Shown: positions 44,025-64,000, counted from the first letter of the stretch. The stretch is 64,000 nucleotides of DNA from Candidatus Altimarinota bacterium (GCA_041242255.1 JBESAV010000001.1:32001-96000); one strand, 5' to 3'. The notes: generated by a model not told the origin, from the sequence alone. Made by a program: numbers and translations.

Positions 44025-44097
44025 AAATTATTATCTCTATAAAATATATACCTTACAAAACCAAAACAAAATGTATCTTCAATCCTACATATCTTTA

Positions 44098-45826: not shown

Positions 45827-45934
45827 ATAAAAAATTTCATAGATATTATTAAATCACCAAAACACAAAAAGTCAACAACTCTTTACATCTAGCCATTTCC
45901 CCGTATACTCCAGCCAACAATAAACACCAATCAA

Positions 45935-47713
45935 ATGGAAATCAGAAATATAGCCATCATCGCCCACGTAGATCATGGTAAAACAACTCTAACCGACGCC
46001 CTCCTTTCCCAAACTGGGATGATCCAAGGTGGATCAATGGACAGCAACCAATTAGAGCAAGAAAGAGGAATCACAATTTACTCAAAACCAACAACTCTTT
46101 ACTACAAAGACACAAAGATCAACATCGTTGATACTCCAGGTCATGCCGATTTCGGATCAGAAGTAGAGCGTGTCCTAAGATCAATCGACTGTGTACTCTT
46201 AATAGTAGACGCCCAAGAAGGACCAATGCCACAGACAAAATTCGTACTTAAAAAGTCCCTTCAACTAGGTCTTAAACCAATCGTAGTTCTAAACAAGATC
46301 GACAAACCAGCCGCTCAACCAGACAGAGTACTTGAAGAAGTTCAAGAACTTTTCCTAGAACTAGATGCCAACGACGAACAATTTGATTTCCCATACATCT
46401 ACGCAATCGGTAAAGACGGTATCGCTAAAACTTCACTAGATGATAATTCACAAAACCTAGACCCACTTCTAGACATGATCCTAGAAAAAGTACCAGCAGC
46501 AGAAGCAGACACTTCTAAAGCCTTCCGCATGCAACCATTCAACCTTGGTTACGACGACTTCATCGGAAGACTTGGAATCGGAAGAATCTACGAAGGAACA
46601 GTAAAATCAGGTCAAAAAGTATTCATCAAAAACCACAACGGGGAAACAAGATCAGGAACTATCAGCAAACTCCAACAGTTCAAAGGATTTGAAACCATCG
46701 AAGTTAAAGAAGCCCACGCAGGTGACCTAGTAATGATCGCAGGTATCGCTGATCTAGACATCGGAGAAACAATTACTTCAGACGACAACGCAGAACTTCT
46801 CCCAGCTATCAACGTAGACGAACCAACTATCGCAATGGACTTCATCGTAAACGACTCTCCATTTGCAGGTAAAGAAGGGAAATTCGTAACAACTCGTCAG
46901 ATCAGAGACAGACTAGAAAAAGAACTAGAGATCAACGTAGGTCTACGTATCGAATTCCCAGAAAATTCAGACAGATTCAAAGTATACGGACGTGGAGAAC
47001 TTCACATCGCCATCCTACTTGAACAAATGGCCAGAGAAGGATTTGAGCTTCAAGTCAGCCAACCACAAGCCATCATCAAGGAAGTAGATGGACAACAAGT
47101 TGAACCATTTGAAGAAGTTACTATCGATTGTCCTTCAGAGTTCACAGGAACAGTTATCGAAAAACTTGGAAAAAGAAAAGGGTCAATGACCAACATGATC
47201 AACAAAGGAAACATCACCAGATTACTCTTCGAAATCCCTTCAAGAGGTCTACTCGGTTTCCGTGGTCAGTTCGTAGTTGATACCAAAGGTGAAGGAATCC
47301 TTTCAAGCCAAGGTCTTGGATTTAGACCATATGCTGGACCAATCGAAAAACACCAAACTGGATCAATGATCTCAATGGACACTGGTAAAGCTCTTGGTTA
47401 CGCCCTAGCCAACCTCCAACAAAGAGGAGTTCTATACATTGAACCAAACACTGAAGTTTACGAAGGTATGGTTATCGGAAACACAGCCAACGGAATGGAT
47501 CTAATAGTAAATCCACTCAAAGGTAAAAAACTAACCAACGTCCGAGCCTCAGGTTCAGACGACGCCCTCAATCTAACACCTCCAAAGAAAGTTACTCTTG
47601 AAACCGGAATGGAAATCATGAAAGAAGATGAATTCCTAGAAATCACTCCAGAAAATGTCCGCATCCGAAAACAACACCTCAAAGAGGCCGACCGAAAAAG
47701 AGCTTCTAAATAA
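45935..47713 (+). CDS. typA: Translational GTPase TypA/BipA
   Basis: RNIAIIAHVDHGKTTL, DTPGHADF, GRGELH, LTNVRASG motifs. Confidence 0.98.
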   Translation: MEIRNIAIIAHVDHGKTTLTDALLSQTGMIQGGSMDSNQLEQERGITIYSKPTTLYYKDTKINIVDTPGHADFGSEVERVLRSIDCVLLIVDAQEGPMPQTKFVLKKSLQLGLKPIVVLNKIDKPAAQPDRVLEEVQELFLELDANDEQFDFPYIYAIGKDGIAKTSLDDNSQNLDPLLDMILEKVPAAEADTSKAFRMQPFNLGYDDFIGRLGIGRIYEGTVKSGQKVFIKNHNGETRSGTISKLQQFKGFETIEVKEAHAGDLVMIAGIADLDIGETITSDDNAELLPAINVDEPTIAMDFIVNDSPFAGKEGKFVTTRQIRDRLEKELEINVGLRIEFPENSDRFKVYGRGELHIAILLEQMAREGFELQVSQPQAIIKEVDGQQVEPFEEVTIDCPSEFTGTVIEKLGKRKGSMTNMINKGNITRLLFEIPSRGLLGFRGQFVVDTKGEGILSSQGLGFRPYAGPIEKHQTGSMISMDTGKALGYALANLQQRGVLYIEPNTEVYEGMVIGNTANGMDLIVNPLKGKKLTNVRASGSDDALNLTPPKKVTLETGMEIMKEDEFLEITPENVRIRKQHLKEADRKRASK

Positions 47714-47749
47714 ACAAACTAAACCAGGTGAAAACCTGGTTTTTATTTA

Positions 47750-48655
47750 TCATCCTATCAACACATCCACCAAGGACTCATGAAAAGCTCTTACAGACGG
47801 ACTCCCAAAAGTTTTATCCAGACCCACTGAACCATTCACTTCCACCAACTTTATACCTTCCCTAGTATTCATGCAGTCATAAGCCAAAATCCGCTGCACT
47901 GGATTTTCACTAAACAATTTCTCTTCAAGTTTTTTTGCAAATTCAACAAACTCCACAGGTACATCATTTTTTTCAAAGACATGTCTAGTAGCACCCTGCG
48001 CAAAATTCGTCAGCAAACTTCCTTTCTTAGGAATACGTAAAACACCATACATAAGCTCTCCGTTCACCATTATCAATCTAAAATCATGAACTCCGTCCAC
48101 AATATCCTTAAACCCACAAGAGCTATCAATCAACTTCTGCACCACGTATTCATCATCAAAAAACTCAGCTTTCTCTAAGATATCTTCAACAGTTCCAATC
48201 AACACTTCCCTTCCACTAGAACCTTTGTTTGGCTTAAAAACAGCTACTTCATTTCTATCAAAATTTTGACTTACTACCTTCTCCAAATCATTTTGATTCC
48301 TAAGCAAAAAAGTTTTAGGACTAGCCTCACCAACCTTTTCAGCCAACATAAACTTATCCATCGTAAGCTGATCAATCCATGGATCAGTCACAACTCTAAT
48401 ATCATCAAACCCAAATCTTCCTTTATTATAAATCACCTTAACTTTCACTTCCCCAGCCTCAATAAAAGCACCATCATTCATCAACCATGATTCAGAAAAG
48501 TGACCATTACCCAAGTAGGTTTCACTTCCTCTCAAAATTCTATACTCATGACCTTTATCCAAAATCGCCTGTATCAACTCACTATATGCATCCACATAAT
48601 ATTTATCACCAAAAGGATAAATATCATACCTATCCTTAAAAAAGATCCCTATCAT
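47750..48655 (-). CDS. RimK-like ATP-grasp ligase
   Basis: DK, KP..GSSG..V, VQ..ID...G, HDFRL, N..QG, EVN motifs. Confidence 0.85.
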   Translation of the reverse strand: MIGIFFKDRYDIYPFGDKYYVDAYSELIQAILDKGHEYRILRGSETYLGNGHFSESWLMNDGAFIEAGEVKVKVIYNKGRFGFDDIRVVTDPWIDQLTMDKFMLAEKVGEASPKTFLLRNQNDLEKVVSQNFDRNEVAVFKPNKGSSGREVLIGTVEDILEKAEFFDDEYVVQKLIDSSCGFKDIVDGVHDFRLIMVNGELMYGVLRIPKKGSLLTNFAQGATRHVFEKNDVPVEFVEFAKKLEEKLFSENPVQRILAYDCMNTREGIKLVEVNGSVGLDKTFGSPSVRAFHESLVDVLIG

Positions 48656-49899
48656 ATCGATTCTTTTACAACATAAGTACTAGCTGGATAATCCATCATA
48701 TTTTGCATAAAATCTCTAAAGCCTGATTCACGCATATGACCGCGCCCCATAAAACTCGTCCCTTTTATCAAACCATGCTTTTGGTTAAACCATTCAGTAG
48801 AAAAATCCGGATATAACTCAGTAACAACAAACTCTTCCTCCGTACAAATCGGTACAAAATCTGAATCAACCCAAGTCGCCACATTCCCTAATTCATGTAC
48901 TCCAAAAACTCTAACATCATCAGGCAAATAATTTCTTCTTACAGTTTTATAAGTCTTTCCTGTATGTATACGGTGCCATTGAGCTTCTTTTATAGGACTC
49001 CCACCAAGATACCTAGAAATAGCATTTGCTTCATATCTATTTAACATAGCTGGCCAAGCCAACGGTAACAACTCTAGTTGATTTGTTAAAGTCTTATAAT
49101 GATATTCCCCATTAACATTTATAAAATTAAAAGGCATACCTCTATCTCTTGTCCTATCCAGATGTCCTTCAAAATCAAAGACCCCTCTCCATAAACCATC
49201 ATCTTCATAACCACCATCCCTTATAAAATCAACTACTTGAGTATTTGTAATCGGATATTTCGAAACCTCAAATCCCTCTAAAATTTCTGAAGCTAAACCT
49301 TGTTCATTATCCCACATAAAAGCATCTACAGAATCGTTATATTGACCAGCACCATAATCAACCCTACCTCCACCCACTTCAACAAACTCCAACTCAACTC
49401 TTTCCATTTCATAAGAATTCAAATCCATTCTTTCTCTATGCTTCTTCATAGAATCAAGTTTGCATATATGAGGAAAAGTAGTTTGATGGTGTAGATTCTC
49501 GTGCTCAATTCCCATCATAATAGCAAAAGCAATTCTCTCATCATTCAAACCACCACTACATATAACTTGTAGAACATCATGATAAAAACGAACTCTATAC
49601 CTATTAAGTTCTTCTAAATCACATCTTTTAAAAGTATCTAAATCATCAATAGAATCAGGACTAACTCCACGCTCAAACAAAACATCAAATTCGTGGTGCT
49701 CTAAATCACAACCAACTTGCTGTAATTTACTTCTAGTAAATGCAGCAGTATGTCCCAAATAAAATAACAACTCTCTTCTTAAAGGATCAGGTTGCTCAGT
49801 CAAAAATTCAAGAAGAACTAAACTAAATAAATTATCATAATCCTTGTAAGATCTAGTGACCTCTGAATAAAACTTCGCCTCTAAACGTTTATTGTTCAT
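48652..49899 (-). CDS. OvoA/EgtB-like non-heme iron sulfoxide synthase (DinB plus FGE-sulfatase domains), no methyltransferase domain
   Basis: LRR.L.FYLGHT..F and MMGIEHE.LH..T iron-ligand motifs; WDNE; ITN....FI.DGGY; Y.DFS...F...H....G.S. Confidence 0.75.
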   Translation of the reverse strand: MNNKRLEAKFYSEVTRSYKDYDNLFSLVLLEFLTEQPDPLRRELLFYLGHTAAFTRSKLQQVGCDLEHHEFDVLFERGVSPDSIDDLDTFKRCDLEELNRYRVRFYHDVLQVICSGGLNDERIAFAIMMGIEHENLHHQTTFPHICKLDSMKKHRERMDLNSYEMERVELEFVEVGGGRVDYGAGQYNDSVDAFMWDNEQGLASEILEGFEVSKYPITNTQVVDFIRDGGYEDDGLWRGVFDFEGHLDRTRDRGMPFNFINVNGEYHYKTLTNQLELLPLAWPAMLNRYEANAISRYLGGSPIKEAQWHRIHTGKTYKTVRRNYLPDDVRVFGVHELGNVATWVDSDFVPICTEEEFVVTELYPDFSTEWFNQKHGLIKGTSFMGRGHMRESGFRDFMQNMMDYPASTYVVKESI

Positions 49900-49995
49900 C
49901 CCATATATTTACTTGCAACAATTATCCCCTCGTCATAAAAATAATCAACAAAAAAGGCCCACTTATTCAAAAGTAGGCCTTTCAAAAACTAAAAA

Positions 49996-50892
49996 TTATT
50001 TCAAATTCTCACTTAGGAATTCAGTAGTTTTTTCCCATGCATCAAGTGTTTCCTCAGCTGCATAGTTTGATCCTGATGGATTTGCAAAAGCATGTCCAAC
50101 ACCATCATAGATATTAATATCATTTTCAACTCCTAACTCATCCAAAGATGATTCAAAAGCTCTAACTTCTTCTACAGGTATTCCACCATCTTCAGCTCCA
50201 AATATTCCAAGTACAGGACCAGAAATACTTTCAAGCTCTTCAGTTGATGTTACAAGATTACCATAGTAAATCACCGTAGCATCTAAGTCGCTAGCCAATG
50301 AAAGATTCAAGGACTGTTGTCCTCCGAAACACCACCCCATTGAAGCAACTCGTGTATAACCATATTCACTTTCAACCCAATCAATCGCTGATTGCATCTT
50401 AGTAACAGCTTCCTCAGGATTACTTCTTACAGAACCAGCCAATTCACCAGCCTGACTACTTTCTTCAGCAACCTCTCCATCATATAAATCTATTGCAAAC
50501 ACTCTGTACCCTTCATTTGCTAATAAATCAGCCATATATTCGATATTATCATTTAGCCCCCACCACTCATGAATCATTACAACCAAAGGTAATTCTTCCT
50601 CAACATTGGCTGCAGCCATGTATCCTTGAAAACCATCTTCCACAACGTCCATACTTACGATTTCATCTCCAAACTCCTGATCAAACAACATTCTATTGTT
50701 ATCTTCAGCAGTGATACATTCACCATTTTCATCGATTTCATCTTCCTGACATCCCATATGGTTCTCCATATCTTTCATGTCATCCATATTGGACATTTCG
50801 TCTGTATTTGGAGTCATCTGAGCACACCCAGCCAACACCAAAGCCAAAACAATCAAAGATAATTTTCTCATATTTTTTGTTAAATTATTCAA
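49996..50892 (-). CDS. Dienelactone hydrolase family lipoprotein
   Basis: LAGC lipobox; HEWWGLN, GWCFGG, GHAFAN motifs. Confidence 0.92.
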   Translation of the reverse strand: MNNLTKNMRKLSLIVLALVLAGCAQMTPNTDEMSNMDDMKDMENHMGCQEDEIDENGECITAEDNNRMLFDQEFGDEIVSMDVVEDGFQGYMAAANVEEELPLVVMIHEWWGLNDNIEYMADLLANEGYRVFAIDLYDGEVAEESSQAGELAGSVRSNPEEAVTKMQSAIDWVESEYGYTRVASMGWCFGGQQSLNLSLASDLDATVIYYGNLVTSTEELESISGPVLGIFGAEDGGIPVEEVRAFESSLDELGVENDINIYDGVGHAFANPSGSNYAAEETLDAWEKTTEFLSENLK

Positions 50893-51017
50893 TCCATATT
50901 ATGAAACCTCTCCAGCCTAAACTCAAGGTAAACTCAAAACAATTGATCTCCCCCCAACAACTTGCTAATATCCCCATACTTAAAAGAACAGCGTATCCAG
51001 GGATACGCCCATCAAAA

Positions 51018-51057
51018 GCCGCCGTAGCTCAGTTGGTAGAGCGCACCCATGGTAAGG
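51018..51057 (+). pseudogene. 5' half of the disrupted host tRNA-Thr(GGT) (attL)
   Basis: GCCGCCGTAGCTCAGTTGGTAGAGCGCACCCATGGTAAGG, after which tRNA similarity stops; its acceptor and anticodon strands pair with the fragment at 58496-58540. Confidence 0.92.
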
Positions 51058-51185
51058 ATACGGACGTCGGGACAATGCAAGGATTTGACTTTAAACTAAA
51101 GCATAACCTACAATCCCAACACGGTCAATAAACCACCCCTGAAAATATAGGGACATCGGCTTAGGTAAAAAAGTACACATATCAC

Positions 51186-51261
51186 GCCATCTTAGCTCAG
51201 TCGGTAGAGCGCCGCCATGGTAAGGCGGAGGTCGGCAGTTCAAATCTGCTAGATGGCTCCA
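51186..51261 (+). tRNA. tRNA-Thr(GGT), element-borne complete copy
   Basis: 76 nt: acceptor GCCATCT/AGATGGC, anticodon arm CCGCC-AT GGT AA-GGCGG, T arm GGCAG-TTCAAAT-CTGCT, encoded CCA. Confidence 0.95.
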
Positions 51262-51316
51262 TTTCCATTTCGAACCAGAGATACCTCGTGAATTAATATT
51301 CACTAAGCTCTTTAAA

Positions 51317-52213
51317 ATGGAAAACAATCAAGTATGGCATTACCTACTTCGATACTTAGAATACTCAAAGGTCATTAAAAATTACTCTCAAAACACAATC
51401 AGAAGCTACAAATGCACCATCAAAAGATTTCTCAGAGAAACCAATATAAACACTACCTCAGACCTTAATAAACAAACTATTGAAAGTTGGTTCTTTAAAG
51501 GCCGTTTAGAAAGACATTGGTCACCTAGCACCTTTCGCTCTCACCTCAAGCACATCAACTGCTTGTGTAAGTGGTTAGAGAAAGAAAATCTGATAGAACA
51601 CAATCCATGCCAAGGTATTGAAAAACCAAAACTCGAACACAAACTTCCAAGAACCCTTAGCAAGGAGGAGGCTAAACTTGTCCTAGATACAACATATCAT
51701 ATGAGATACACCTACAAGTTTGAAAGATATCGAAATACCGCTCTGATCGGGATTATGCTTTATGCAGGTTTAAGACGAGGTGAAACAATGAAGCTCAAAC
51801 TTCATGATGTAAAACTTTATGAGAAAACAATCTTCCTAAAGCAAGCTAAAGGCCACAAAGATAGACTAGTCCCAATCAATACAGCCTTAGCCTCAATCCT
51901 AGAACAGTACCTTGTAGAAAGAGGTAGACTCAAGAAAGACTCAATCTACTTCTTTGTAGGAACGAATAACAACCTACCCCTTGGAGAAAAAGTATTCACA
52001 CGGTTAATGAAACAACTCAGAAAGAAAACTAAACTAGATTTTTCAGCCCATACTCTCCGCCACGCATTCGCTCGACTTATGCTAGAGGGAGGTTGTGACA
52101 TCTACACCCTCTCAAAACTGATGGGACACTCCAAAATCACAACCACTACCATTTATCTTTCATGTTCCACCGAACAGATGAGTAAATCTATTGAGATGCA
52201 CAGATTAAATTAA
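51317..52213 (+). CDS. Tyrosine recombinase/integrase (XerC/D-like)
   Basis: SAM-like N domain (YSQNTIRSY); catalytic R (GLRRGE), K (KG.K.R), HTLRH, MGH, TTIY. Confidence 0.95.
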   Translation: MENNQVWHYLLRYLEYSKVIKNYSQNTIRSYKCTIKRFLRETNINTTSDLNKQTIESWFFKGRLERHWSPSTFRSHLKHINCLCKWLEKENLIEHNPCQGIEKPKLEHKLPRTLSKEEAKLVLDTTYHMRYTYKFERYRNTALIGIMLYAGLRRGETMKLKLHDVKLYEKTIFLKQAKGHKDRLVPINTALASILEQYLVERGRLKKDSIYFFVGTNNNLPLGEKVFTRLMKQLRKKTKLDFSAHTLRHAFARLMLEGGCDIYTLSKLMGHSKITTTTIYLSCSTEQMSKSIEMHRLN

Positions 52214-52225
52214 GTGTTTTAGGAG

Positions 52226-52705
52226 TTAGACTTTCATCCCAAGGAATCCCTTCAAAACACCCCAATAACCTAATGGATTACTTATTCTAATTTGTAGTGA
52301 ATCATCTCCATATGAGGCTGGAACCCATTCACATAACCACATTTTTTTGTAATTGTATCCTTTGTATCTATAAGTAGCTGCAAAACAGAATTTATATTTT
52401 TGTTTGGCTTTAGGTATCTCGACCCATATAGAATCATCACCAATATCTAGATCTGAAATTTTCGCCCTAAAAATTGAAACTGGTACTATATTCCTTATCT
52501 TTTCCTCTGAGCTTATTCGAATTTCTACCAAAACTTTTTCCGAGGTTTCCCCATATCTTTGATTTGATCTAAATTGATATTCAATATAAAGATCAAGGAA
52601 GGGTTCAAAAATTTGCTTGTTATTGTAATAGTTTAAACAATATCCAAGGATTACACCAATGATGGTAAAACCACCTCCAATTAGTGGTGAGAGTAAATCT
52701 GACAT
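52226..52705 (-). CDS. Hypothetical membrane-anchored cargo protein
   Basis: N-terminal TM segment; 159 aa. Confidence 0.6.
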   Translation of the reverse strand: MSDLLSPLIGGGFTIIGVILGYCLNYYNNKQIFEPFLDLYIEYQFRSNQRYGETSEKVLVEIRISSEEKIRNIVPVSIFRAKISDLDIGDDSIWVEIPKAKQKYKFCFAATYRYKGYNYKKMWLCEWVPASYGDDSLQIRISNPLGYWGVLKGFLGMKV

Positions 52706-52858
52706 GAAAATTAAATTAAATACTAGAATCTATCTTATCACCAAAAGTTAACACTCCTAATATTTCACCATCACTTTCCTTTCAGCAAAACATATCCATC
52801 TATACAGACCTCAAGAGCTCACACCTAATTTTCAAAGAACAAAAGTATCAAATTCAAT

Positions 52859-53866
52859 TTATACCTCTAAAGCAGCTACAAGAATATCTGTAGTATTTTT
52901 GGTCATAGAAGGCAGGCTCTGTATGTAAGTGTAAGTTGTAGACAGTTTTCTATGCCCTAAATGCTTCCTAATATCATCAGTGTCAGCACCCATATGAGCT
53001 AAATAAGTAGCTACATACCTCCTAATAGAGTAAACAGTGATATGAAAACCTAATGTTTTTGAAAGTCTCTGAAAATATTTTTGCATCCCTGACTTAGTCC
53101 ATCTCTTCCCCTTTTTTAATGATTCAAATAAATGATTACCTCGTCTTCCCAGTTTTTTTCTCTCAGCCAGATAATTATTAAGAATTGGCTCAATATACTC
53201 AGGAAGATAGAAAGATTGAACCCTACCTTTTTGCTTAGCTGTTTTATATTTCAGAACTAATCCTTCTTTTTCTTTTGTAATAGAACCTAGATTTAAAGAG
53301 GCTGCTTCACTTGTCCTCATACCCGTGATACACAAAATGTTCACAAATAATTCATTACGTGTCTTCTCCAACCTTGTCCTTTCTTCACTTTCTCTAACAA
53401 AGATTTTCAACTTGTTTACCTGATCATTAGTTAGGCAATCTTTTTCGGTAATTTCTTCTTTGATTTTCCCTACCTTCTTAAACTTATTTTCATCAATAAA
53501 CTCCAATTGCTTTAACCATTTAAAGTAAGTATTTAAATCTTTTCTATATGAATTATAGGTAGTACCAGACCAACCTCTCTTCTCATTAAAATGTCCTAAG
53601 AACCATTTAATGGTATGAATATCATTTACTTCCTCGATGGAAGTAATACCGACTTGGAACAACACAAACCTAAGCTTATCTTTAACGTTTTTTACAGTAG
53701 CCTTACTTCTACCACCTACTATTAGATAATCGTAAATAAAATAGTTCCAATACTCCCAAATAGGAGTTAAACCATCTTTGACAATAAGAGACCTTTTCTC
53801 AATATCACTGAGAAGTTCTTGTAGACTTTCTGGGGCTCGACTTACGTCATAATTTGTATAGCTCAA
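52859..53866 (-). CDS. Second tyrosine recombinase
   Basis: TGMRTSE, K, YSIRR (HxxR variant), LGH, TYTY; TTG start. Confidence 0.9.
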   Translation of the reverse strand: MSYTNYDVSRAPESLQELLSDIEKRSLIVKDGLTPIWEYWNYFIYDYLIVGGRSKATVKNVKDKLRFVLFQVGITSIEEVNDIHTIKWFLGHFNEKRGWSGTTYNSYRKDLNTYFKWLKQLEFIDENKFKKVGKIKEEITEKDCLTNDQVNKLKIFVRESEERTRLEKTRNELFVNILCITGMRTSEAASLNLGSITKEKEGLVLKYKTAKQKGRVQSFYLPEYIEPILNNYLAERKKLGRRGNHLFESLKKGKRWTKSGMQKYFQRLSKTLGFHITVYSIRRYVATYLAHMGADTDDIRKHLGHRKLSTTYTYIQSLPSMTKNTTDILVAALEV

Positions 53867-53943
53867 AAACGATTATTTAAAGATAATTTACTTTTGCAAT
53901 CCTTAGCCTAACACGAAAGAAACGGCTTTACAAAGGGCAAAAA

Positions 53944-54507
53944 CTTACCTTGTTTAACAAGGTAAGCCTACACTATTTGACTTGGTTAAGGTCATCGAGA
54001 CTTGCTTGTATTCGTTTTGTGTTCAATAAAAAAATCCACAAAAACCGCTAAAGTTAAACAAAACAAAATTTTGCACTAAATCCAAAACTACAAATTCTGG
54101 GCGGAGAGCATATTTAGGATACATACTTTGAGATATAGATTTACTCTAAACACCTGGTCTAACAAGGTAAAAGCTTAATAAATCATACAAATTTAAAAGT
54201 ACAATCTCCGTCATTTCACGAAAAGCAAGAAAACTGAGAAAGCTCTTTAAACAAAGACAAACCTTACTTTTTAAAATTTCTAAAAGTGTGTTTTTCGGAC
54301 GGACTGCTCATTCTAACAAAAAATATTAAAGTATGATCTACATTTCAAAAGACCTTATCCAACAAGGTAATATATTACAAAAATTAAAAACTCTAAAAAC
54401 ACAATCTCCGCTTTTTTGCCAAAATTGGTAAAATCAAGAAACCTCTTATCATAGATCAAAATACCACTTTTCCAAAATCCAAAAAGTGCTTATTTAGTGC
54501 GGAGAGG
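53944..54507. repeat. Array of ~200-bp degenerate units with palindromic ACCT..AACAAGGTAA boxes
   Basis: AACAAGGTAA at 53956, 54161, 54361; ACAATCTCCG at 54201 and 54401; CGGA boxes at ~54102, 54300, 54500. Confidence 0.8.
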
Positions 54508-54566
54508 TGCGAAGTTTCAACATCAAGTAGATTGTAATATTTGTTAATTTGCGATAATCTTTAAAC

Positions 54567-54690
54567 GAGCTCCAGTTAGTTTTCTTAACGCAAGGAACGT
54601 TCCATCGTTAACCAATTTGGTTAAAGGTGGGTACGTAGCCATATTGGTTTTCCTTGCGAATTCTAATTGGGGCTCCTACGTGCCCTCTTT
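54567..54690 (+). ncRNA. Unassigned structured RNA or leader with pseudoknot potential
   Basis: Stems 54567-79/54663-75, 54589-97/54650-58, hairpin 54602-30, and crossing helix 54629-38/54676-85; extended -10 TGcGATAAT at 54550-58. Confidence 0.6.
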
Positions 54691-54703
54691 TAATTTTATA
54701 AGC

Positions 54704-55702
54704 ATGAATAAAACACAAACAAAACCTTTCTATAAAAAAGACTGGTTTAAAATATTAATGATAATACTACTTGTAATAGTATTTCCTATATCCCTAATTC
54801 TAGTCATACCAGGACTATTATTCTATTTCATATGGAATCATAAAAAATATCCAAGACTCAGCAAAGTAAGTATTGGACTATCTACTTTAATGTTTATCTT
54901 AACAGTCATCGGATCAATCATGGTCAAACAAGAAGAAAACGAAATACTTGCATTAATCAATCAAGGTCAATTTGAGGAAGCTCAACAATACATAAATGAG
55001 AGCGATCAATCACACATGAAGCTAATGAAAGAATTAGATAAACTTAATGAAGAATTTATAGATGATAAGATAGACGAGTTAGCTACGTTAAAAATAACTG
55101 ATGTAGAAAAAGCAACCACTCTGAAAACATACTCGGATATACCTGTTTTAAATCAAGAAATTGTTGATAGAATCATAAGCAAGTCTGATCAAGTTGAGAT
55201 TAGAATTGCAGAAATTGAAAAGGAGAAGTTGGCAAATGAGCAACAAGAACTTGAAGACACAATTGCAAGAATACAAAGCAAAATTAGACAAATTAACAAT
55301 GGAAGAATACCGATACTAGATATACCCAACACCATTCAAGAATTTCCAGATACACCTGAATTATCTACATATAGAAATCAACTAATTCAAGCAGCACGAA
55401 ACCATCAAATCAAAACCTTACCTACTTTACGTAAAGACTATGCTGAAAGGATAGGTAAAGAGTTATGGGAAAACGATTATGAAATATACACCAAAGGAAA
55501 CGGCCATTCTACAATTGTTTTTGTACACTGGAGCTTTGCAAGCAACTCTAACATCAAAACAACTCATGAGCTATTTAGAGACAAGATTAGTGAGTTAAGA
55601 TTTGATAGAGCTGAATACAAATGGTCAGAATATGGGGAGTACACTTTCTATAACATGGAGTCAAAAGCAGACAGCTATATTGAAGGTATAGATAGTAATT
55701 AG
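54704..55702 (+). CDS. Hypothetical membrane protein with coiled-coil region
   Basis: ATG at 54704 (MNKTQTKPFYKKDWF...) preferred over the track's TTG at 54617, which lies inside the RNA structure; N-terminal TMs. Confidence 0.7.
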   Translation: MNKTQTKPFYKKDWFKILMIILLVIVFPISLILVIPGLLFYFIWNHKKYPRLSKVSIGLSTLMFILTVIGSIMVKQEENEILALINQGQFEEAQQYINESDQSHMKLMKELDKLNEEFIDDKIDELATLKITDVEKATTLKTYSDIPVLNQEIVDRIISKSDQVEIRIAEIEKEKLANEQQELEDTIARIQSKIRQINNGRIPILDIPNTIQEFPDTPELSTYRNQLIQAARNHQIKTLPTLRKDYAERIGKELWENDYEIYTKGNGHSTIVFVHWSFASNSNIKTTHELFRDKISELRFDRAEYKWSEYGEYTFYNMESKADSYIEGIDSN

Positions 55703-55724
55703 AAAGTCACACACTCACATAAGA

Positions 55725-56153
55725 CTAAACGTCGCATCTCTTACAAATAGGGCTAGAGTTTCTTCTTACTAAGTCTTTAATATGAACTTCTTTTGTTCTT
55801 GATGTTATAACACTACCTCTGATCTTACTTTTATAATCTTTAGTTAAAAGCTTATCATCAGTCAAAAGAAGCATAGCTTTAGACTTTAAAGCAAGTAAAA
55901 TTATATGATAGTCGTTTGATTTTAAATCATCACATTCAGGCGGACTACTTGACTCATCAATATCATACCCAATTGCTCTTTGATTAATTCTTAAATTTTT
56001 AATAAACCGCATTCTCTTTTCGCCATATTCTTTCTTAAAAATAGAACTCTTTCCATAAACCAAAAGTATTTTTCCTACTTCATTTTGTTGTTCAACATAA
56101 TTACCATCAAGGAAGAAATTATCAAACATATTATTATCAAGGATAAAACACAT
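55725..56153 (-). CDS. PIN-like domain protein
   Basis: ILDNN N-terminal strand; SND.HII.LA; LLLTDD. Confidence 0.6.
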   Translation of the reverse strand: MCFILDNNMFDNFFLDGNYVEQQNEVGKILLVYGKSSIFKKEYGEKRMRFIKNLRINQRAIGYDIDESSSPPECDDLKSNDYHIILLALKSKAMLLLTDDKLLTKDYKSKIRGSVITSRTKEVHIKDLVRRNSSPICKRCDV

Positions 56154-56158
56154 ATTAG

Positions 56159-57391
56159 TTAAAGATTGTTAAATGCCTCATCCAAAAAGAATTCCCGGTA
56201 GGAATCTGGTGCATCAATATAATTACCATTCTTATCAATCTTGATATTATAGACTTGTGCGCCATTTTTATGATTTTCTATATAGACAATATTTATCATA
56301 GAAATCTTTTCAGGATTATCTGTCAAAAACTTCTTCACAGCCCGATCAATAATAAAATCGCTATGTGTTTCAATTACTATTTTTTTGTCTTCATTTAAGA
56401 CCATATCTGCAAAAAAATCACCCATGTGCGCCTGTGCCTTTGGATGTAAATGAACTTCCGGCTGCTGTACTAAATAGAGATCATTTTTTTTTGACATTAA
56501 TGCTCCTATAATAACTGGTAAAGATTGACTTACTCCATATCCGACATCGGCCAAATTACTGTTCACACCTGAGTGCATATCCAATCTTAATTCAAAAGGA
56601 CTCACATTAATTTTTTTGTACCACGAAACTTTTATATCTTTAAACAAACCACTTTTTTTACCATACTCATAAATTTTTTCAGAAATAGACCTATCCTTTA
56701 AAATTTTAGTTAACAGATATGGTGATTCATCATTTTTGTCTGAATTTCTCTTATACATTTCATAAATTCTCTCAGGCTCAGTTCTAATTGGTGAAACTAC
56801 GTGAACTTTACCGGGTAAAGCAAATATCAATTCTTGTATTTTTTTAACAATTGTCATTACTATTTTCTCATCAACATCACTCAACTCATTTTCACTCAAA
56901 ATCATACCAATGAAATAAGTAATGAACCTTAATTCAGTCATATGCTGATAATTCAAGGTATTTTCACTCTCATTTATATCTAGTTCAATATCTTCATGGT
57001 CAGGTATTTGAAACTTAATAAATACTTTGTTTTTTTCCTTTCTAATACTATAAAAATATCCATCACTCCAATCCAAAGAAAGCATATAAGGATGTGCTTT
57101 GCCTTCTTTTGATCTATAACTCAAGCTAATGTAAACACCACCAGCAATCATATTAAATTCAAAAGTTTCAGAATTAGAATTTTTATTTTTCAATTCATCA
57201 AAAGGACCCATTTTGCTCAACATTTCTTCAGATCCGAAGCCAGTTAAATTTGCTGCCATTAAGTTTATTCCAGACAAAATACTAGTTTTACCCGAACTAT
57301 TTTCTCCTACTAAAAAAGTTAATGGTGTGATTTTAATTGATTGTTTCTTTCCAAAGCTTTTAAAATCACTTAACATCATTTGCTTAATCAT
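56159..57391 (-). CDS. AAA_15/AAA_21 ABC-type ATPase (DUF3696-like C-terminus)
   Basis: FKSF, Walker A GENSSGKTS, DVGYGVSQ.LP, QPEVHLHP..Q, ETHS. Confidence 0.9.
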   Translation of the reverse strand: MIKQMMLSDFKSFGKKQSIKITPLTFLVGENSSGKTSILSGINLMAANLTGFGSEEMLSKMGPFDELKNKNSNSETFEFNMIAGGVYISLSYRSKEGKAHPYMLSLDWSDGYFYSIRKEKNKVFIKFQIPDHEDIELDINESENTLNYQHMTELRFITYFIGMILSENELSDVDEKIVMTIVKKIQELIFALPGKVHVVSPIRTEPERIYEMYKRNSDKNDESPYLLTKILKDRSISEKIYEYGKKSGLFKDIKVSWYKKINVSPFELRLDMHSGVNSNLADVGYGVSQSLPVIIGALMSKKNDLYLVQQPEVHLHPKAQAHMGDFFADMVLNEDKKIVIETHSDFIIDRAVKKFLTDNPEKISMINIVYIENHKNGAQVYNIKIDKNGNYIDAPDSYREFFLDEAFNNL

Positions 57392-57579
57392 TCACGATTG
57401 TAATTAAGAACTTAAACCTATTATACATTAATTATTACATTCTTAAACTTAACATATATTAAACAATCCTATTATTTTCAATCAAATCTTTCAAAGCATC
57501 ACTATATAGAAGGTGATTTCAACCTGTTATGCCTAATAAAGGTAAACATTCTTTTAAATTAACTGATAAAAACAGAATT

Positions 57580-58245
57580 TTAAGTAAGCAAATACTTATT
57601 ATGGACTCCTACAGGTAAAGAACCCCTTTTAGATGGATCCAACTCTAAAATGACTAGATCATTATAAAAAAACTCTAATTCATTTGCTGGGAATTGAATC
57701 AATGACCTCAAATCAGAAGCACAGCTAGAACAAAAATAATAGTCTTGAACATTTTTTAATGAAGAAAACAGACCTGGCTTCTTGTTACACTTATTACACA
57801 CATGACTTCCCTTCTTTACATCAAACATATAGTTATCAATATCCTTAAATCTTTTTTCAAACATATCGTGTAAACTTTCTCTTTCCTCCAACAATCCTCC
57901 TGGTAAAATTGTCGACAAAATTGAATCAAATTCCTCTTTATCAATATCACCCTTAACATACCTCTTACCTAAATCTTCACCTGCCTTTTTTCCAAATATA
58001 ATTAGAGTCACATCTATATCATTCATTCTCTCCAGTAGTGTCTCATATTCAATTTGAGTAATTTTTCCTTTAGCCAACAATCCTTTCAGAGCATCTTCTA
58101 TCTTTGAAATTTTCTTATACACTAAATCAATTTGTTTCTGTAACTTACTCTGATATCGAGCCTTCTTATTTCTAGAAACTTCAGCTTGCCGATTCATTTT
58201 TGTAATACCTGCGTTGATTGATCTAAGTTTCGATTTATACCCCAC
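57580..58245 (-). CDS. Hypothetical protein with coiled coil and CxxC...CxxC zinc ribbon
   Basis: CNKC...CSSC motif; GTG start. Confidence 0.6.
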   Translation of the reverse strand: MGYKSKLRSINAGITKMNRQAEVSRNKKARYQSKLQKQIDLVYKKISKIEDALKGLLAKGKITQIEYETLLERMNDIDVTLIIFGKKAGEDLGKRYVKGDIDKEEFDSILSTILPGGLLEERESLHDMFEKRFKDIDNYMFDVKKGSHVCNKCNKKPGLFSSLKNVQDYYFCSSCASDLRSLIQFPANELEFFYNDLVILELDPSKRGSLPVGVHNKYLLT

Positions 58246-58495
58246 GATACAACTTTTACATTTTTTATACTATATCATCATTAAATCACTTTGTAATTGA
58301 GAATCAGGCCATCTTGAAAATAAACATGAGAAAAAGGAAACAACACAAAACTAACACCTTATATTAATCCATGCTATACTCTCATCACATTCACCAAGGA
58401 TACTCCCCTCGAAATGGGACACCGGCTTTTGAATCCAATCCTTGGATAATAGCTACAGATAGGCAAAATATTGTGCTACTACCTACCTTACATAT

Positions 58496-58540
58496 ATGGT
58501 AAGGGTGAGGTCACGGGTTCAACTCCCGTCGGTGGCTCCA
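58496..58540 (+). pseudogene. 3' half of the disrupted host tRNA-Thr(GGT) (attR)
   Basis: ATGGTAAGGGTGAGGTCACGGGTTCAACTCCCGTCGGTGGCTCCA, with no D-arm upstream. Confidence 0.92.
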
Positions 58541-58554
58541 TTTTAATCATATGA

Positions 58555-59121
58555 TCAGTTCTTTGAACCAAAATTCAGCATCTCCAAATAATCAATTCTA
58601 TCCAGAGTATTAGGATTCTCACTTTTCATATCCAACTTTTTCCAAAATCCCAAGAAAAAACCATGACTCACTCCAAATACTTTTTTCCCTTTATATCGAT
58701 CATTAAAAGTTTTAATTCTTTTCTTTATATCTTCATTTTGTTCACTCCCAGAATCTTCAATATTTAAGCTTCTAACAAAATTTTCCCTTATTGCTCTCAA
58801 CGGATTTTCACCATTTTCCACCAATCTCTTAGGACTAAAGCCAATTTCGTTGATCAAAGGTTCCACCACTACATCTTTATCTAAATCAAGTAATCCTAAG
58901 ATCAAATCTAAAGTCTCTCTAGACCTATTTGACTCTGAACAAAGTAGAATATCAGCATTTAAAACATCAGACGGATCAAAACCTTTTATGCCTTCAAGAT
59001 CAAAAACCTGTACAGATGGATCAACTAAACCACTTGCCAACTTCTCTAATTCATCCAAAGTTAACTTAGAGTAATCATCATAGGGTGGCTTCAACCTATT
59101 ATGTCTTATAAAAGTAAACAA
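58555..59121 (-). CDS. Histidine phosphatase superfamily protein
   Basis: FIRH, S...R..ET, INE, SHG motifs. Confidence 0.7.
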   Translation of the reverse strand: MFTFIRHNRLKPPYDDYSKLTLDELEKLASGLVDPSVQVFDLEGIKGFDPSDVLNADILLCSESNRSRETLDLILGLLDLDKDVVVEPLINEIGFSPKRLVENGENPLRAIRENFVRSLNIEDSGSEQNEDIKKRIKTFNDRYKGKKVFGVSHGFFLGFWKKLDMKSENPNTLDRIDYLEMLNFGSKN

Positions 59122-59179
59122 AAATCCATATTACTTAGTTTAATAATATCAAATTTCACTCATAATTTAAGTAAACAAA

Positions 59180-60112
59180 TTATCTCTTAAATGAACTTAA
59201 AATAAATTCCGCATAGCATTGAGCATATTTCTTAACTTTCTCTTCATCTAAAGGATAATAGTCGGCTGCATTAAAACTAGCTGCTTTCTGATCCGTAGCT
59301 AAATAATCACGTCTAATTTCCAAAGCTATTGATTTTTTAACACTCGATAAAAGAAAAGTCGCAGTATGTTTATAATTTACAAAATAAGACCTATTCAAAC
59401 CTAACGGTATACCAAACTTCAAGTAACTTTGTCTCAGTCTCTTTTCAAGAAATCCTGACCTCAAAACTGTTCCATCTTTCATTTCCCCTAAAAGAATATT
59501 TTCACGCAAGTTATTACTTTTATTTGTTTGTGCGTCGATGTATTTCTGAAGATTCTCGAAATCTTTTACTCCTCGATCAGGATTATCTTCTTTAGGTTTA
59601 TTAGGTGAACCTTTATGCATACTATGGGGTATAAATAAAACACCATTATCCTTGAGCATATTCGGAATCTGCAAAACACTATTGGTTAACTCTAAATGTC
59701 TGCCAACCAACTTACTTAAAATAATTGGTTCTTCAGAATAATTTAAAATACTAGCTATCCCCTCTCCCACTGAAGGTTTTATTCTATTACAATCAATAAT
59801 ACCTCTGTGTTGTTGCACTCGGATCAAAGCACCTTTACCCTCAAAGTCACCCAATATATTGACTAACTCATCAGTAACTTCTTGAATACCAACGTCATTT
59901 TTCATCTTTAGATATTCATAAAAAGTTAATTCGTCGTTATATTTCTTAACAACTTCCAAAAATTCTTCTGTCAAAAGCTCATCACCCATAAAATTGTCAT
60001 CATGATAACCATGTTGATCCAAAATTATTAAATCATATTTAGAGTTATTACCTACTTTTTTTCCAAATTCCCACTTAAACATATAACTAGTTATATGTTT
60101 CATTTTAAACAT
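59180..60112 (-). CDS. N-formylglutamate amidohydrolase-like protein
   Basis: HG..., D.G, RGIIDCNR, HSM, LEIRRD pattern. Confidence 0.55.
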   Translation of the reverse strand: MFKMKHITSYMFKWEFGKKVGNNSKYDLIILDQHGYHDDNFMGDELLTEEFLEVVKKYNDELTFYEYLKMKNDVGIQEVTDELVNILGDFEGKGALIRVQQHRGIIDCNRIKPSVGEGIASILNYSEEPIILSKLVGRHLELTNSVLQIPNMLKDNGVLFIPHSMHKGSPNKPKEDNPDRGVKDFENLQKYIDAQTNKSNNLRENILLGEMKDGTVLRSGFLEKRLRQSYLKFGIPLGLNRSYFVNYKHTATFLLSSVKKSIALEIRRDYLATDQKAASFNAADYYPLDEEKVKKYAQCYAEFILSSFKR

Positions 60113-60140
60113 AAACTTTAAAAAGTCATTTTGAATCTAC

Positions 60141-61247
60141 TCACCCCCTCCACAAAATCAATCCTCCAGCCATAACCTTCATCGCAACCAAAACCAAAAC
60201 CCCATACACGATCCCTACATCAAGACTCACACCTACCAAAGGATTGATAAACAACCCAAACAAAGCCGCAGAAAAACTAACAGAAGAAATCACAGTTGTC
60301 CTCAACTTCTTTGGGGATGTTTTCAAGATCCAAGCATCCCGTATATTCCTGTAAACATTCTCTGAAAAAGAAAAAATCATCAAAGCCAACACACACAGTA
60401 TTGGCTCCAAAACTAAGAGCAATCCACAAGAAATCACCTGAAGCAACAACGTTAAAATCATAGATTTTTTTATACCTAGTCCTTCTTCAATCTTATGTGC
60501 ATAAAATGATCCAATAATCGAAAACACCTTTGCACATGCATACACAATACTAATTATAGCCAAACTAATACCTGAAAAAGACAGTGCTGATTGAAAAATC
60601 AGTTCACCTCGATATGACATAAATGAAAAAAACAAAACAATAGGAATCATTGAGTAAGCATATTTCTTAATATCCACTTTGCTATGTTCAACCTCTAATT
60701 CATCATCCTCCTCTTCAACATTTCCTACAAGAAGCATAGCAATCAAACCCAGCACTAACGAAATCAACCCAATCAAAAACCCAAACTTCAGATCACTAAT
60801 CATAAGAACTCCACTAACTGTCAACATACCAATAATTGTAGAGGATTCGTCTACTATACTGAGCCTCCCTAAACTCTTAGTCATATTCCCCTCCTCTCCA
60901 ACTAGATCATGTAAAAAACTTTCCTGAGTTCCAGAAAAGAAGGCCAGTCCTAGATTAAAAAGAAACTGACTTATAGCAAACAACCAAAAAGAATCAGCAA
61001 AATAAAGAACTCCAAAACTTACAATCGACAGGATAAACGCTAAACAAATTGTAAATTTCTTCCCAACTTTATCGGCCATATAAGAGCTTGGCACCTCAGA
61101 CAATAATATAGTCACAACACCTATAGTTTGAATCAAACCAATTTCAGCAAAACTCAATCCAACCTGATTTTGCCACAACAACAAAGTCGGAATAATCAAA
61201 CCATAAGCAAAATGCTGTAAAAATACTGAAGAATAAAATAATTTCAT
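60141..61247 (-). CDS. MFS transporter
   Basis: EVPS...AD..GKK, G.AF.SG, R.TV.S motifs; multi-TM. Confidence 0.88.
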   Translation of the reverse strand: MKLFYSSVFLQHFAYGLIIPTLLLWQNQVGLSFAEIGLIQTIGVVTILLSEVPSSYMADKVGKKFTICLAFILSIVSFGVLYFADSFWLFAISQFLFNLGLAFFSGTQESFLHDLVGEEGNMTKSLGRLSIVDESSTIIGMLTVSGVLMISDLKFGFLIGLISLVLGLIAMLLVGNVEEEDDELEVEHSKVDIKKYAYSMIPIVLFFSFMSYRGELIFQSALSFSGISLAIISIVYACAKVFSIIGSFYAHKIEEGLGIKKSMILTLLLQVISCGLLLVLEPILCVLALMIFSFSENVYRNIRDAWILKTSPKKLRTTVISSVSFSAALFGLFINPLVGVSLDVGIVYGVLVLVAMKVMAGGLILWRG

Positions 61248-61256
61248 ATTTTCATC

Positions 61257-61685
61257 TTACAAGAACTTCACAAATATCAAACTATCCTGCCCCAAAATAT
61301 GTTTCTTCAACCTAGCCTCCACCTCAAAACCAATTCCCTTATAAAACTTCTCAGCTTCCCAACCAGCATTTGTCTCAAGCCAGATTTTCTTACAACTCTC
61401 CCTCTTGGCAACCTCCAAAACCTTATACATCAAAGCTCTCCCAACCCCTTGCCTCCTATACTTATGCCCAACCAATAAAGTCTCCACTTTCGCCAAATCA
61501 GCCTCGATCATCACCTCCACAATTCCCATAATACTACCTTCAGAATCCTCAGCTAAAAACCTATAAGTTCTCTTATCAAAATTTACCTTTCTCCCATAAT
61601 GTTCCAAATCAGCCAAAGGCCACTCCACACTTACAAAATCAGAAACCCTCTCATCATCTGGTTTAAATTCTATAATTCCAATCAT
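61257..61685 (-). CDS. GNAT acetyltransferase
   Basis: YRRQGVGRALM and A..FY...GF motifs. Confidence 0.92.
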   Translation of the reverse strand: MIGIIEFKPDDERVSDFVSVEWPLADLEHYGRKVNFDKRTYRFLAEDSEGSIMGIVEVMIEADLAKVETLLVGHKYRRQGVGRALMYKVLEVAKRESCKKIWLETNAGWEAEKFYKGIGFEVEARLKKHILGQDSLIFVKFL

Positions 61686-61746
61686 ACACTTAACATATCA
61701 GATAAAAATATATAGTATTCAAGTTCACACAGTAAATAAATTAAAA

Positions 61747-62619
61747 TTACTTAACCTTCTTTTCCGATTCTTCACAAACTAAATCTAATTCTTGTTCTTC
61801 CTGCTCAAAATCCAAAACTATATTATTAGGATTCTCAGTACCTAATCTATCAAGATCTAATTCTACATTCGCTGCAGAATAAAATTCACTCCTGTAATCA
61901 TCTTCCTCTAAAAGAGATCCAGATTTATAAACAACATTTCGCCTTAGCATATGAACTAATCTCTCTTCATTTTCCAAATAACTGTTTAAGTTTTCCACTT
62001 CTAAACTGTAAGGCTCAATAGAATTATCACCTTTCATAACATCCAACAACTTTATTCTTTCATTTATACCATCTCTAACTAACGCCAAACTATCATTTAC
62101 CACCTCATCTAAAATTTCTAACTTTTCATCAAAAGGTAAATCATTCTGTAAAGCTTTATCAATTGAAATTTTATCTTTATATAACTCATTAACTGAAACC
62201 ATGAGTGGAATAAGAACACATGTTCCAAAAATAACACCTAGACCATACTCAATAGAAAACAGGCAAGTAGCAATAGAAAATATTAAACCTAAAAAGATTA
62301 CCATTTCCGCCTTACTATCTATTTCTGAATAAAAAACTTTCAATTCACTCGGCAAATATTTTAACACAAACTTCCAATCTGAATTTTCCATATTACCATC
62401 CCTAAAGTAATCACTATACCTTTTACTATAATTTCCGCCTTCAACACTCCTAAAAAACCCTCTATTATCAATCGTTCTACCATCTTTAGTTCTGAATATT
62501 TGATGAGCCTTTTCTATCTTTGCTAACCTTAACTGGTCTTTGTATTCTTCAGCTATCTCATCTGCAAATGTATCAAACAAAATATTGTAATCCTCCATAC
62601 TTAAAATTAAACTTCTCAA
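61747..62619 (-). CDS. Hypothetical membrane protein
   Basis: Two central TM segments. Confidence 0.6.
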   Translation of the reverse strand: MRSLILSMEDYNILFDTFADEIAEEYKDQLRLAKIEKAHQIFRTKDGRTIDNRGFFRSVEGGNYSKRYSDYFRDGNMENSDWKFVLKYLPSELKVFYSEIDSKAEMVIFLGLIFSIATCLFSIEYGLGVIFGTCVLIPLMVSVNELYKDKISIDKALQNDLPFDEKLEILDEVVNDSLALVRDGINERIKLLDVMKGDNSIEPYSLEVENLNSYLENEERLVHMLRRNVVYKSGSLLEEDDYRSEFYSAANVELDLDRLGTENPNNIVLDFEQEEQELDLVCEESEKKVK

Positions 62620-62672
62620 AACATAAGCTCAAAAGAGAATTCTGTCAAGGTTACACATTCATGTGAATCTAT

Positions 62673-63560: not shown

Positions 63561-63713
63561 ACCTTTTCGCTTGAAAAAGACAACAACATTCTTCTTAAAT
63601 ATAATAAACTTGTTTAAATTTTTTCACACTATAACACATTTACCCATTTAATCAAAAATCATCAATAAAAGAATAATGTATATACTCAATTCTTTTATTT
63701 TAAAAACAATAAA

Positions 63714-63986: not shown

Positions 63987-64000
63987 ATATATAAAAGTTG

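Follow-up and report, generated by a model that had tools for sequence, protein, structure and literature searches.

Within a 64,000-nucleotide stretch of a Candidatus Altimarinota bacterium genome (GCA_041242255.1, JBESAV010000001.1:32001-96000; hereafter the window, from whose first letter all positions are counted), the segment 51058-58495 is very probably a 7.4-kb integrative island lodged in the host's single tRNA-Thr(GGT) gene, which it breaks and replaces with a tRNA of its own. Such a strategy had been put forward in a reading made without any database search (hereafter the sequence-only reading), and it is sustained by the findings that the sole complete Thr(GGT) gene is that of the element, that the split gene is of the native type, and that the same layout recurs at 32 of 40 loci. 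Sequence reading and comparison establish that the gene is split, that a replacement is carried, that the layout recurs and that the island's tyrosine recombinase IntA is patchily distributed.

The two parts of the interrupted gene stand at the two ends of the island, with 7,447 bp between them. The part at the right junction comprises the 3' anticodon stem, variable loop, T arm, acceptor strand and CCA; its acceptor strand pairs with that of the left part (GCCGCCG / CGGTGGC), and 51018-51057 joined to 58505-58540 is called a tRNA-Thr by ARAGORN, which bears out the split as it had been described in the sequence-only reading. From the D arm to the anticodon stem, the 5' half is identical to intact tRNAs in genomes of the same family. 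The longest run of letters that both junctions share is the 9-mer ATGGTAAGG (51049-51057 and 58496-58504), and no direct repeat longer than 9 bp was found flanking the insert. Neither ARAGORN nor Rfam called a tRNA at either junction (51018-51100 and 58450-58540), although Rfam weakly detects the T arm on the right. Thus, only 9 bp are duplicated, and the classical arrangement, in which one junction regenerates the gene and the other keeps a displaced duplicate, is absent from the window; the earlier claim that neither junction restores the gene holds.

We also examined contigs assembled from four public marine-metagenome runs. The left junction is spanned by X1:1 and X4:25 and the right one by X4:31, X1:6 and X3:23, with no mismatches across the junctions in X1:1 (corresponding to 49800-58424), X4:25 (50228-52881) or X4:31 (58058-59176). 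Since contigs of four runs bridge both junctions, misassembly, which the sequence-only reading had named as a way in which it could fail, is unlikely.

The complete tRNA-Thr(GGT) carried by the element begins 130 bp past the loop of the 5' half and ends 56 bp before the recombinase gene at 51317-52213. The sequence-only reading had placed an intact but divergent gene at about this distance inside the left end, and both ARAGORN and Rfam find it at 51186-51261. Its Rfam score of 67.2 bits compares with a gathering score of 29, and it forms a cloverleaf with a GGT anticodon (ARAGORN, Thr(ggt)). Identity to the host 5' half is 85% over 40 nt and to the host 3' half 75% over 48 nt. The acceptor stem reads GCCATCT / AGATGGC versus GCCGCCG / CGGTGGC in the split gene, and the anticodon stem CCGCC/GGCGG versus CACCC/GGGTG.

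The genome consists of a single 1,000,477-bp contig with 30 tRNA genes and a transfer-messenger RNA gene. Whether it holds another Thr(GGT) gene had been left to a genome-wide scan, and a second one is absent by ARAGORN: the gene at 51186-51261 is the sole complete Thr(GGT) gene among the 30, the other Thr gene being Thr(TGT) at position 243297. ACC and ACT make up 62% of the Thr codons in 473 open reading frames (ORFs) of at least 250 codons.

A pattern running from the D arm to the variable loop of Thr(GGT) matched 25 of 40 related genomes. An intact tRNA with the CACCC/GGGTG stem is present in six genomes of the same family (G001, G002, G004, G006, G007 and G008), and the CCGCC/GGCGG stem of the 51186 gene in none of the 40. 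In G001 the acceptor stem is also the same as that of the split gene, and the tRNA is preceded, as in the window, by a tRNA-Ser(GGA) and the orthologue of the window's 42.2-43.2 kb gene (partial synteny by tblastx). Because same-family genomes carry the split-type stem and none the 51186 type, the split gene is, on this comparison, native and the complete gene foreign. The gene on the left flank, encoding a dienelactone hydrolase (49996-50892), had no match in the 40 relatives, so that the exact empty site could not be aligned. Of the empty-site comparison suggested in the sequence-only reading, the part concerning the type of tRNA found in relatives thus came out in its favour, and the alignment of the site itself did not succeed.

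Two further observations concern this gene in the relatives. Contigs G002:C12, G002:C39, G001:C42 and G006:C54 carry a tRNA-Thr(GGT) 50-250 bp from a contig end, as is expected if the site varies in populations. In G004, two complete tRNA-Thr(GGT) genes lie 6.1 kb apart (L032:4830-4905 and 10940-11015); they agree over some 65 bp of upstream sequence and through the first two-thirds of the gene from its 5' end, differ in their T arms, and enclose a major facilitator superfamily transporter gene and a 1009-amino-acid ORF. The pair resembled an element with a full tRNA in its attachment site, but no recombinase lies between the copies.

In order to place the arrangement in a wider context, we assembled 40 loci by adding the window and four loci from metagenomes (L040, L041, L045 and L047) to 35 Thr(GGT)-linked IntA loci; 12 of the 40 were classed by eye on the sequence, as the regular expression misses 5' halves with short D loops. 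In 32 of the 40, a tRNA-Thr(GGT) 5' half ending in the anticodon loop lies 89-171 bp upstream of a complete gene, giving the order of half tRNA, full tRNA and recombinase that the sequence-only reading had proposed to look for among integrase homologues. Among the 25 split loci that were recognised first, there are 15 in which the upstream half and a stretch 5-11 kb downstream together make up a tRNA-Thr; at L181 this stretch is a complete second tRNA, leaving 14 loci (window included) with a true 3' half, and at L117 the distal half has the same sequence as the 3' half of the element's own tRNA. The shared cores measure 7-17 bp, and TGGTAAG is common to the elements of the type found in the Candidate Phyla Radiation (CPR). 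By their records, the hosts are Peregrinibacteria, Gracilibacteria, Patescibacteria, Saccharibacteria, Parcubacteria and Gammaproteobacteria. In all five host genomes examined, which are metagenome-assembled, a mismatch-free anticodon-arm pattern that may miss odd copies finds the element locus only (the element tRNA and displaced 3' halves).

Some of these loci show additional features at the target. L121 and L124 each have two candidate downstream 3' halves, 2.6 kb and 0.56 kb apart respectively, which suggests serial events at one site. In G046, a 1.9-Mb Gracilibacteria chromosome (L122:9630-9915, with L118 and L231), the tRNA-Thr(GGT) before an IntA homologue is interrupted by 207 nt in the anticodon loop, exactly in the recombinase core. 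In intron mode, ARAGORN reports at L122 an intron-bearing tRNA whose splice is displaced by 2 nt and which is read as Leu-GAG; the insert has no Rfam match at E <=1 and a fold z-score of -1.68. No uninterrupted Thr(GGT) gene was found in G046 with the pattern used, and two classical-type elements stand in tandem behind the interrupted gene, their 3' halves 19.7 and 11.8 kb further. It has been proposed that introns protect tRNA genes against integration, and the 207-nt insert, if an intron, would remove the landing site.

IntA is the recombinase encoded next to the element's tRNA. Its residues R153, K181, H245, R248, H271 and Y280 are invariant in 27 sequences; in the second tyrosine recombinase of the island, IntB, R184, K211, R282, H305 and Y314 are invariant in 12 sequences, with Tyr at the first His position in at least 90%. 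We take these to be the catalytic residues of the tyrosine recombinase family. IntA has 824 database relatives at E <=1e-10, many of them 55-60% identical and of equal length, and it occurs at 58% identity or more in three of 41 related genomes, G000 among them. In NCBIfam, IntA reached 176.7 versus an equivalog cut-off of 329.6, and IntB 77.6, the best models being XerD, XerC and XerA. The genome encodes a third, Xer-like recombinase (G000:420184-421110), which is present in 40 of the 41 related genomes. A role of IntA as the housekeeping Xer is contradicted by its distribution (3/41), the scores below cut-off and the separate Xer-like gene in 40/41; judged by its patchy distribution, IntA is accessory. 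No relative above 27% identity was found in IMG/VR, and Pfam detects no arm-binding N-terminal domain in IntA; IntB likewise has no arm-binding domain.

Of 80 IntA loci from species-representative genomes, 35 carry a complete tRNA-Thr(GGT) upstream, on the same strand and no more than 300 bp away; a different tRNA (Lys, Met, Thr-CGT or Thr-TGT) takes this place in 12, and 33 show no tRNA there. A quick IntA tree, with support from the Shimodaira-Hasegawa-like approximate likelihood ratio test (SH-aLRT) only and leaving out L130 (short), L131 and L136 (stops under table 11), L041 and L047, places the window in a well-supported clade of 28 rows: 20 split, six classical, one split without tRNA and one with no tRNA. 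At least four changes between the split and classical modes are needed on this tree.

A second recombinase recurs as well. All 15 delimited elements have one, as do 31 of the 40 loci, and five of the nine loci lacking it have less than 1.2 kb of sequence after intA. In CPR-type elements IntB is encoded on the opposite strand, 0.5-3 kb past intA, with orthologues of the window's protein at 29-40% identity in 11 others; at L140, L181 and L182 the second recombinase gene is at the far end, on the same strand. A different order was observed at L141:8477-10861, within a Myxococcota chromosome, and at L164:8616-10861, in a Ruegeria contig: intB, loop core, spacer, tRNA-Thr(GGT) and intA, with no left tRNA half. 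This order looks like the joined ends (attP form) of an excised element, sitting in a chromosome.

Between the crossover and the tRNA lies the spacer, comparable to those of 89-171 bp in 32 loci. The motif GGACGTCGG at 51062-51070 adjoins the core, and the 13-mer GGGACATCGGCTT is found at 51150-51162. This 13-mer has two exact copies in the 64 kb, each near an element end (GGGACAYCGGCTT, one copy in the spacer and one 80 bp from the right end); in other elements, GTRCCYCTC-like or AAACAGGTC motifs recur. A promoter scan yielded the promoter-like TTGACT-18-TACAAT at 51085-51114, 72 bp before the element tRNA, with 10 of 12 matches.

Taken together, we propose that the island entered through site-specific recombination in the anticodon loop, with a crossover within ATGGTAAGG, most likely in the 7-bp TGGTAAG. 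Because the attachment site has only this short core in common with the target, neither junction would rebuild the tRNA, and the complete foreign tRNA-Thr(GGT), 130 bp from the crossover and presumably expressed from its own promoter-like site, would now be the sole source of GGU-anticodon tRNA. Integration would be catalysed by IntA, perhaps with IntB as an Xer-like pair acting on an asymmetric site, and the same enzymes could excise the island precisely, restoring the host gene exactly; a loss of the island by any route but precise excision would leave the host without Thr(GGT) tRNA. The integration module would consist, in order, of the core, the spacer with repeated motifs, the tRNA, intA and the conserved intB, the remainder being variable cargo. 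A whole tRNA would remove the need to match the host acceptor and T arms, and this freedom may be the reason for the spread of the islands across phyla.

We infer that the island is mobile. In run X3, whose sample is not flagged as the source, one contig connects 51048 directly with 58496; it skips 7,447 bp and has nine letters that fit either side. In this contig, presumably the record X3:24, the right side is mismatch-free over 1.2 kb of the window's right flank. The contig may come from a strain that has the empty site and another left flank, from a related organism, or from a chimera of the assembly graph, and we do not count it as proof of excision.

A further suggestion of the sequence-only reading was that the altered anticodon stem could shield the element's own tRNA from the integrase. 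When the 3' anticodon stem was compared with the five letters after the attP loop in the 32 split loci, the element tRNA was identical in none and the host, whose 3' stem was deduced from its 5' half, in 11, with mean mismatches to the attP flank of 2.8 and 1.6, respectively. That the element stem never equals the attP flank weakly favours the suggestion; a shielding effect is called into question by hosts that are targeted despite two or three stem mismatches (the window host, L104, L110 and L129) and by the element tRNAs, which keep TGGTAA, that of the window keeping the core TGGTAAG.

Several observations weigh against a mobile island that breaks and replaces its target. The circle junction was seen in no contig of the four runs, in which rare forms are dropped, and the joined-halves contig, if it is X3:24, matches 30 letters on the left, about 67 more appearing to lie off the window's left flank. 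The 13-mer is statistically weak, as 13 of 100 shuffles give at least two matches at two mismatches or fewer. The dependence of the host is deduced from gene counts, and tRNA-Thr(UGU) might read all four codons. Exceptions also exist among the loci: in four of the 40 (L141, L142, L164 and L179) the letters of the loop and the flank motif on the element side are found, with no left half; another four (L040, L041, L045 and L126) have no 5' half, loop letters or flank motif, and of these L040 and L126, with perfect downstream 3'-half repeats of 53 and 46 bp, follow the classical restoring mode; and L119:9780-10000 consists of a 5' half, the core through GGGTC, a 165-nt spacer and IntA, with no complete tRNA in the 20.9-kb locus.

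The missing circle junction and the ambiguity of the only joined-halves contig would both fit a frozen remnant, an island that integrated in the proposed way and is now immobile, leaving a permanent horizontal replacement of the host tRNA gene. We consider this unlikely, since both recombinase genes are open with their catalytic residues kept, the two tRNA halves are undecayed and still form a cloverleaf, the island is present in some family members and absent in others, and a joined-halves contig does exist in X3. That close IntA relatives at L040 and L126 integrate classically raises the question of whether 51186-51261 could be the regenerated host gene and the upstream 5' half an unrelated leftover. 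However, it is the upstream 5' half, and not the 51186 gene, with which the distal 3' half pairs; same-family genomes have the split-type stem with the 51186 type in 0/40 relatives; and no 5' half can be left in front of the regenerated gene by classical integration, all of which makes this very improbable. The chance that the layout is a composite of two separate elements, nested or in tandem with one recombinase each, is also small; the opposite strands of the recombinase genes, the tandem arrays at this tRNA in G046 and the double 3' halves at L121 and L124 point that way, but the IntA-IntB pair is found in 15/15 delimited elements, IntB is orthologous across the CPR-type ones, and no further tRNA fragment or repeat lies between both genes in the window.

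To a chimeric join within conserved tRNA sequence we attach almost no weight: tRNA sequences do attract foreign contigs, as illustrated by loose ends at 51025 and 51058, but long contigs of four runs cross both junctions without mismatch, and the same architecture is found at 31 other loci in many assemblies. Nor is it at all credible that the halves form a working split tRNA gene, with transcripts joined in trans as in Nanoarchaeum. Both halves are intact, as that would require; on reading, however, the sequence that follows the 5' half shows no complementarity to that preceding the 3' half, a complete gene with the same anticodon lies between the halves, and the machinery for tRNA trans-joining is, as far as known, archaeal.

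The positions of the features are collected in the table below.

Features of the tRNA-Thr(GGT) island and its junctions, in window positions
Feature	Position	Strand	Basis
Host tRNA-Thr(GGT) 5' half = attL	51018-51057	+	Acceptor strand, D arm, 5' anticodon stem, loop + GG (sequence reading)
Common core copy 1, ATGGTAAGG	51049-51057	+	Longest identity between both junctions
Element spacer, presumed P' arm of attP	51058-51185	+	Repeat motifs and promoter-like site
Element's complete tRNA-Thr(GGT)	51186-51261	+	ARAGORN; Rfam RF00005 67.2 bits
IntA, 298-aa (amino-acid) Xer-like tyrosine recombinase	51317-52213	+	PF00589 106.8 bits and SAM-like N-terminal domains
159-aa ORF between both recombinase genes	52226-52705	-	No Pfam, PHROG or PADLOC family
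IntB, 335-aa second tyrosine recombinase	52859-53866	-	PF00589 79.2 bits
ORF-poor stretch with three 19-nt palindromic repeats	53867-54616	.	Repeat family; no ORF >36 aa
361-aa cargo ORF, no family	54617-55702	+	Weak relative in element L127
142-aa ORF adjoining ATPase gene, no family	55725-56153	-	ORF list
ABC/OLD-type ATPase (AAA_15 / AAA_21), NsnB/AriA-like	56159-57391	-	Pfam AAA_15 2e-24; PADLOC NsnB 2.2e-42, AriA 1.6e-28
221-aa ORF with SHOCT motif	57580-58245	-	Pfam SHOCT 31.1 bits
Second copy of end-associated 13-mer, GGGACACCGGCTT; presumed P arm site	58416-58428	+	Motif search
Core copy 2 + host tRNA-Thr(GGT) 3' half = attR	58496-58540	+	ATGGTAAGG, then 3' anticodon stem through CCA

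In the cargo part, the window contains no complete known defence system and one NsnB/AriA-like ATPase; from adjacency alone, the neighbouring 142-aa ORF is a possible partner of this ATPase in a two-gene defence system. For three further ORFs of the cargo no informative family was obtained. A PHROGs search of the window island returned integrase and function-unknown ATPase families only, and no structural phage family. The 73 cargo ORFs of 15 elements include matches to Avs2, SoFic, IetA, LmuB, DRT-type defence reverse transcriptases and a phospholipase D (PLD) nuclease, most ORFs being without a family. The second conserved recombinase, the defence-type cargo genes and the lack of phage families are additions to what the sequence-only reading had described. 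The palindromic repeats (ACCTTGTTTAACAAGGTAA and two variants) start at 53947, 54152 and 54352, spaced by 205 and 200 bp within 53947-54370, and could be binding sites or an origin of the excised form. Over most of 44000-64000, at 31-42% G+C, the GC skew is -0.3 to -0.55, a very strong strand bias; it is weaker within the island, at about 0 to -0.25 at 54-56 kb.

Break-and-replace integration has so far been demonstrated in actinobacteriophages only, and here it would extend to a large, conserved family of non-phage islands in CPR bacteria, Gammaproteobacteria and others. It would account for foreign tRNA-Thr(GGT) genes in reduced genomes, and imply that a genome of 1 Mb and 30 tRNA genes can end up relying on a mobile element. 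It also provides a rule for locating island ends that standard tools miss because they seek a regenerated tRNA and a displaced fragment. With its compact integration module and very short universal target, the system is a candidate genetic tool for bacteria lacking one. Tentatively, and leaning slightly against the idea rather than for it, we consider that these islands form a cross-phylum class of two-recombinase mini-islands for which the anticodon loop, identical in all bacteria, is a portable 7-bp landing site, and whose whole carried tRNA becomes the host's sole source. If so, the elements would be addictive vehicles for defence genes and a regular route for horizontal tRNA gene replacement in streamlined CPR genomes, and the interrupted anticodon loop in G046 would be a host counter-measure that removes the landing site.

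In comparison with known systems, IntA and IntB share the two-domain Xer architecture of XerC/XerD, and two recombinases may likewise serve one asymmetric site; unlike XerC/XerD, both score far below equivalog cut-offs and IntA is patchy. As in Islander-type islands (PMC4383910) and tycheposons (bioRxiv 10.1101/2020.12.28.424599), a small, cargo-carrying element has a tyrosine recombinase beside a tRNA gene; Thr(GGT) is among the seven tycheposon targets, and tycheposon cargo is adaptive or defensive (bioRxiv 10.1101/2020.12.28.424599). Classical islands and tycheposons are described as restoring the target by means of a tRNA fragment, with a full gene and a partial copy flanking the insert, whereas here a whole gene is carried and there is no restoration; some tycheposons might nonetheless carry full tRNAs.

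Searches of the open-access literature returned no paper that deals with islands splitting Thr(GGT) or with such elements in CPR bacteria; among papers using the term tRNA-dependent lysogeny none is, by its title, on CPR bacteria, Thr(GGT) or non-phage islands, and a paper on gene exchange in Patescibacteria (PMC12455944) does not mention tRNA, integrase or recombinase. The class of mechanism was published in 2024; the family, the two-recombinase module and the breadth appear undescribed in the open-access literature searched.

The closest parallel is tRNA-dependent lysogeny, shown by experiment for actinobacteriophages (Fionnbharth K4, Cluster L, CQ2, DL and Gaia X; Guerrero-Bustamante and Hatfull, mBio 2024, PMC10865867). 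According to that paper, these phages use an 8-17 bp core at a host tRNA gene that is not rebuilt, and need a phage tRNA of the same isotype; related phage integrases work in the classical way, and the trait evolved repeatedly. Its authors ask how common the phenomenon is outside Actinobacteria and cite as a likely case the Lj965 prophage of Lactobacillus johnsonii, in which the tRNA is not rebuilt at the junction and a cognate tRNA is encoded; Lj965 is the prophage of a Firmicute, whereas the present element is non-phage. The likenesses are a tyrosine recombinase, a host tRNA target and a carried tRNA with the same anticodon; cores of 8-17 bp in the phages and 7-17 bp in the present elements, the tRNA being rebuilt in neither; a host with a minimal tRNA set and a single copy of the target; and a mode that switched repeatedly among related integrases, here with at least four changes on the IntA tree. 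Unlike the phages, the present elements measure 5-11 kb, have no structural genes and no IntA relative above 27% identity in IMG/VR, so that the temperate-phage feature is lacking. Hosts and targets differ as well, being CPR and other Gram-negative phyla with Thr(GGT) here and Actinobacteria with Lys-TTT, Ile2-CAT and Leu-CAA there, as do the Xer-like recombinase paired with a second one and the tRNA fixed between the crossover and intA, features known here from sequence alone. The window thus shares with tRNA-dependent lysogeny a tRNA-overlapping site with an adjoining recombinase (recombination itself being presumed), a short core and a carried tRNA, and we file the island as one that seems to work like tRNA-dependent lysogeny and not as a case of lysogeny.

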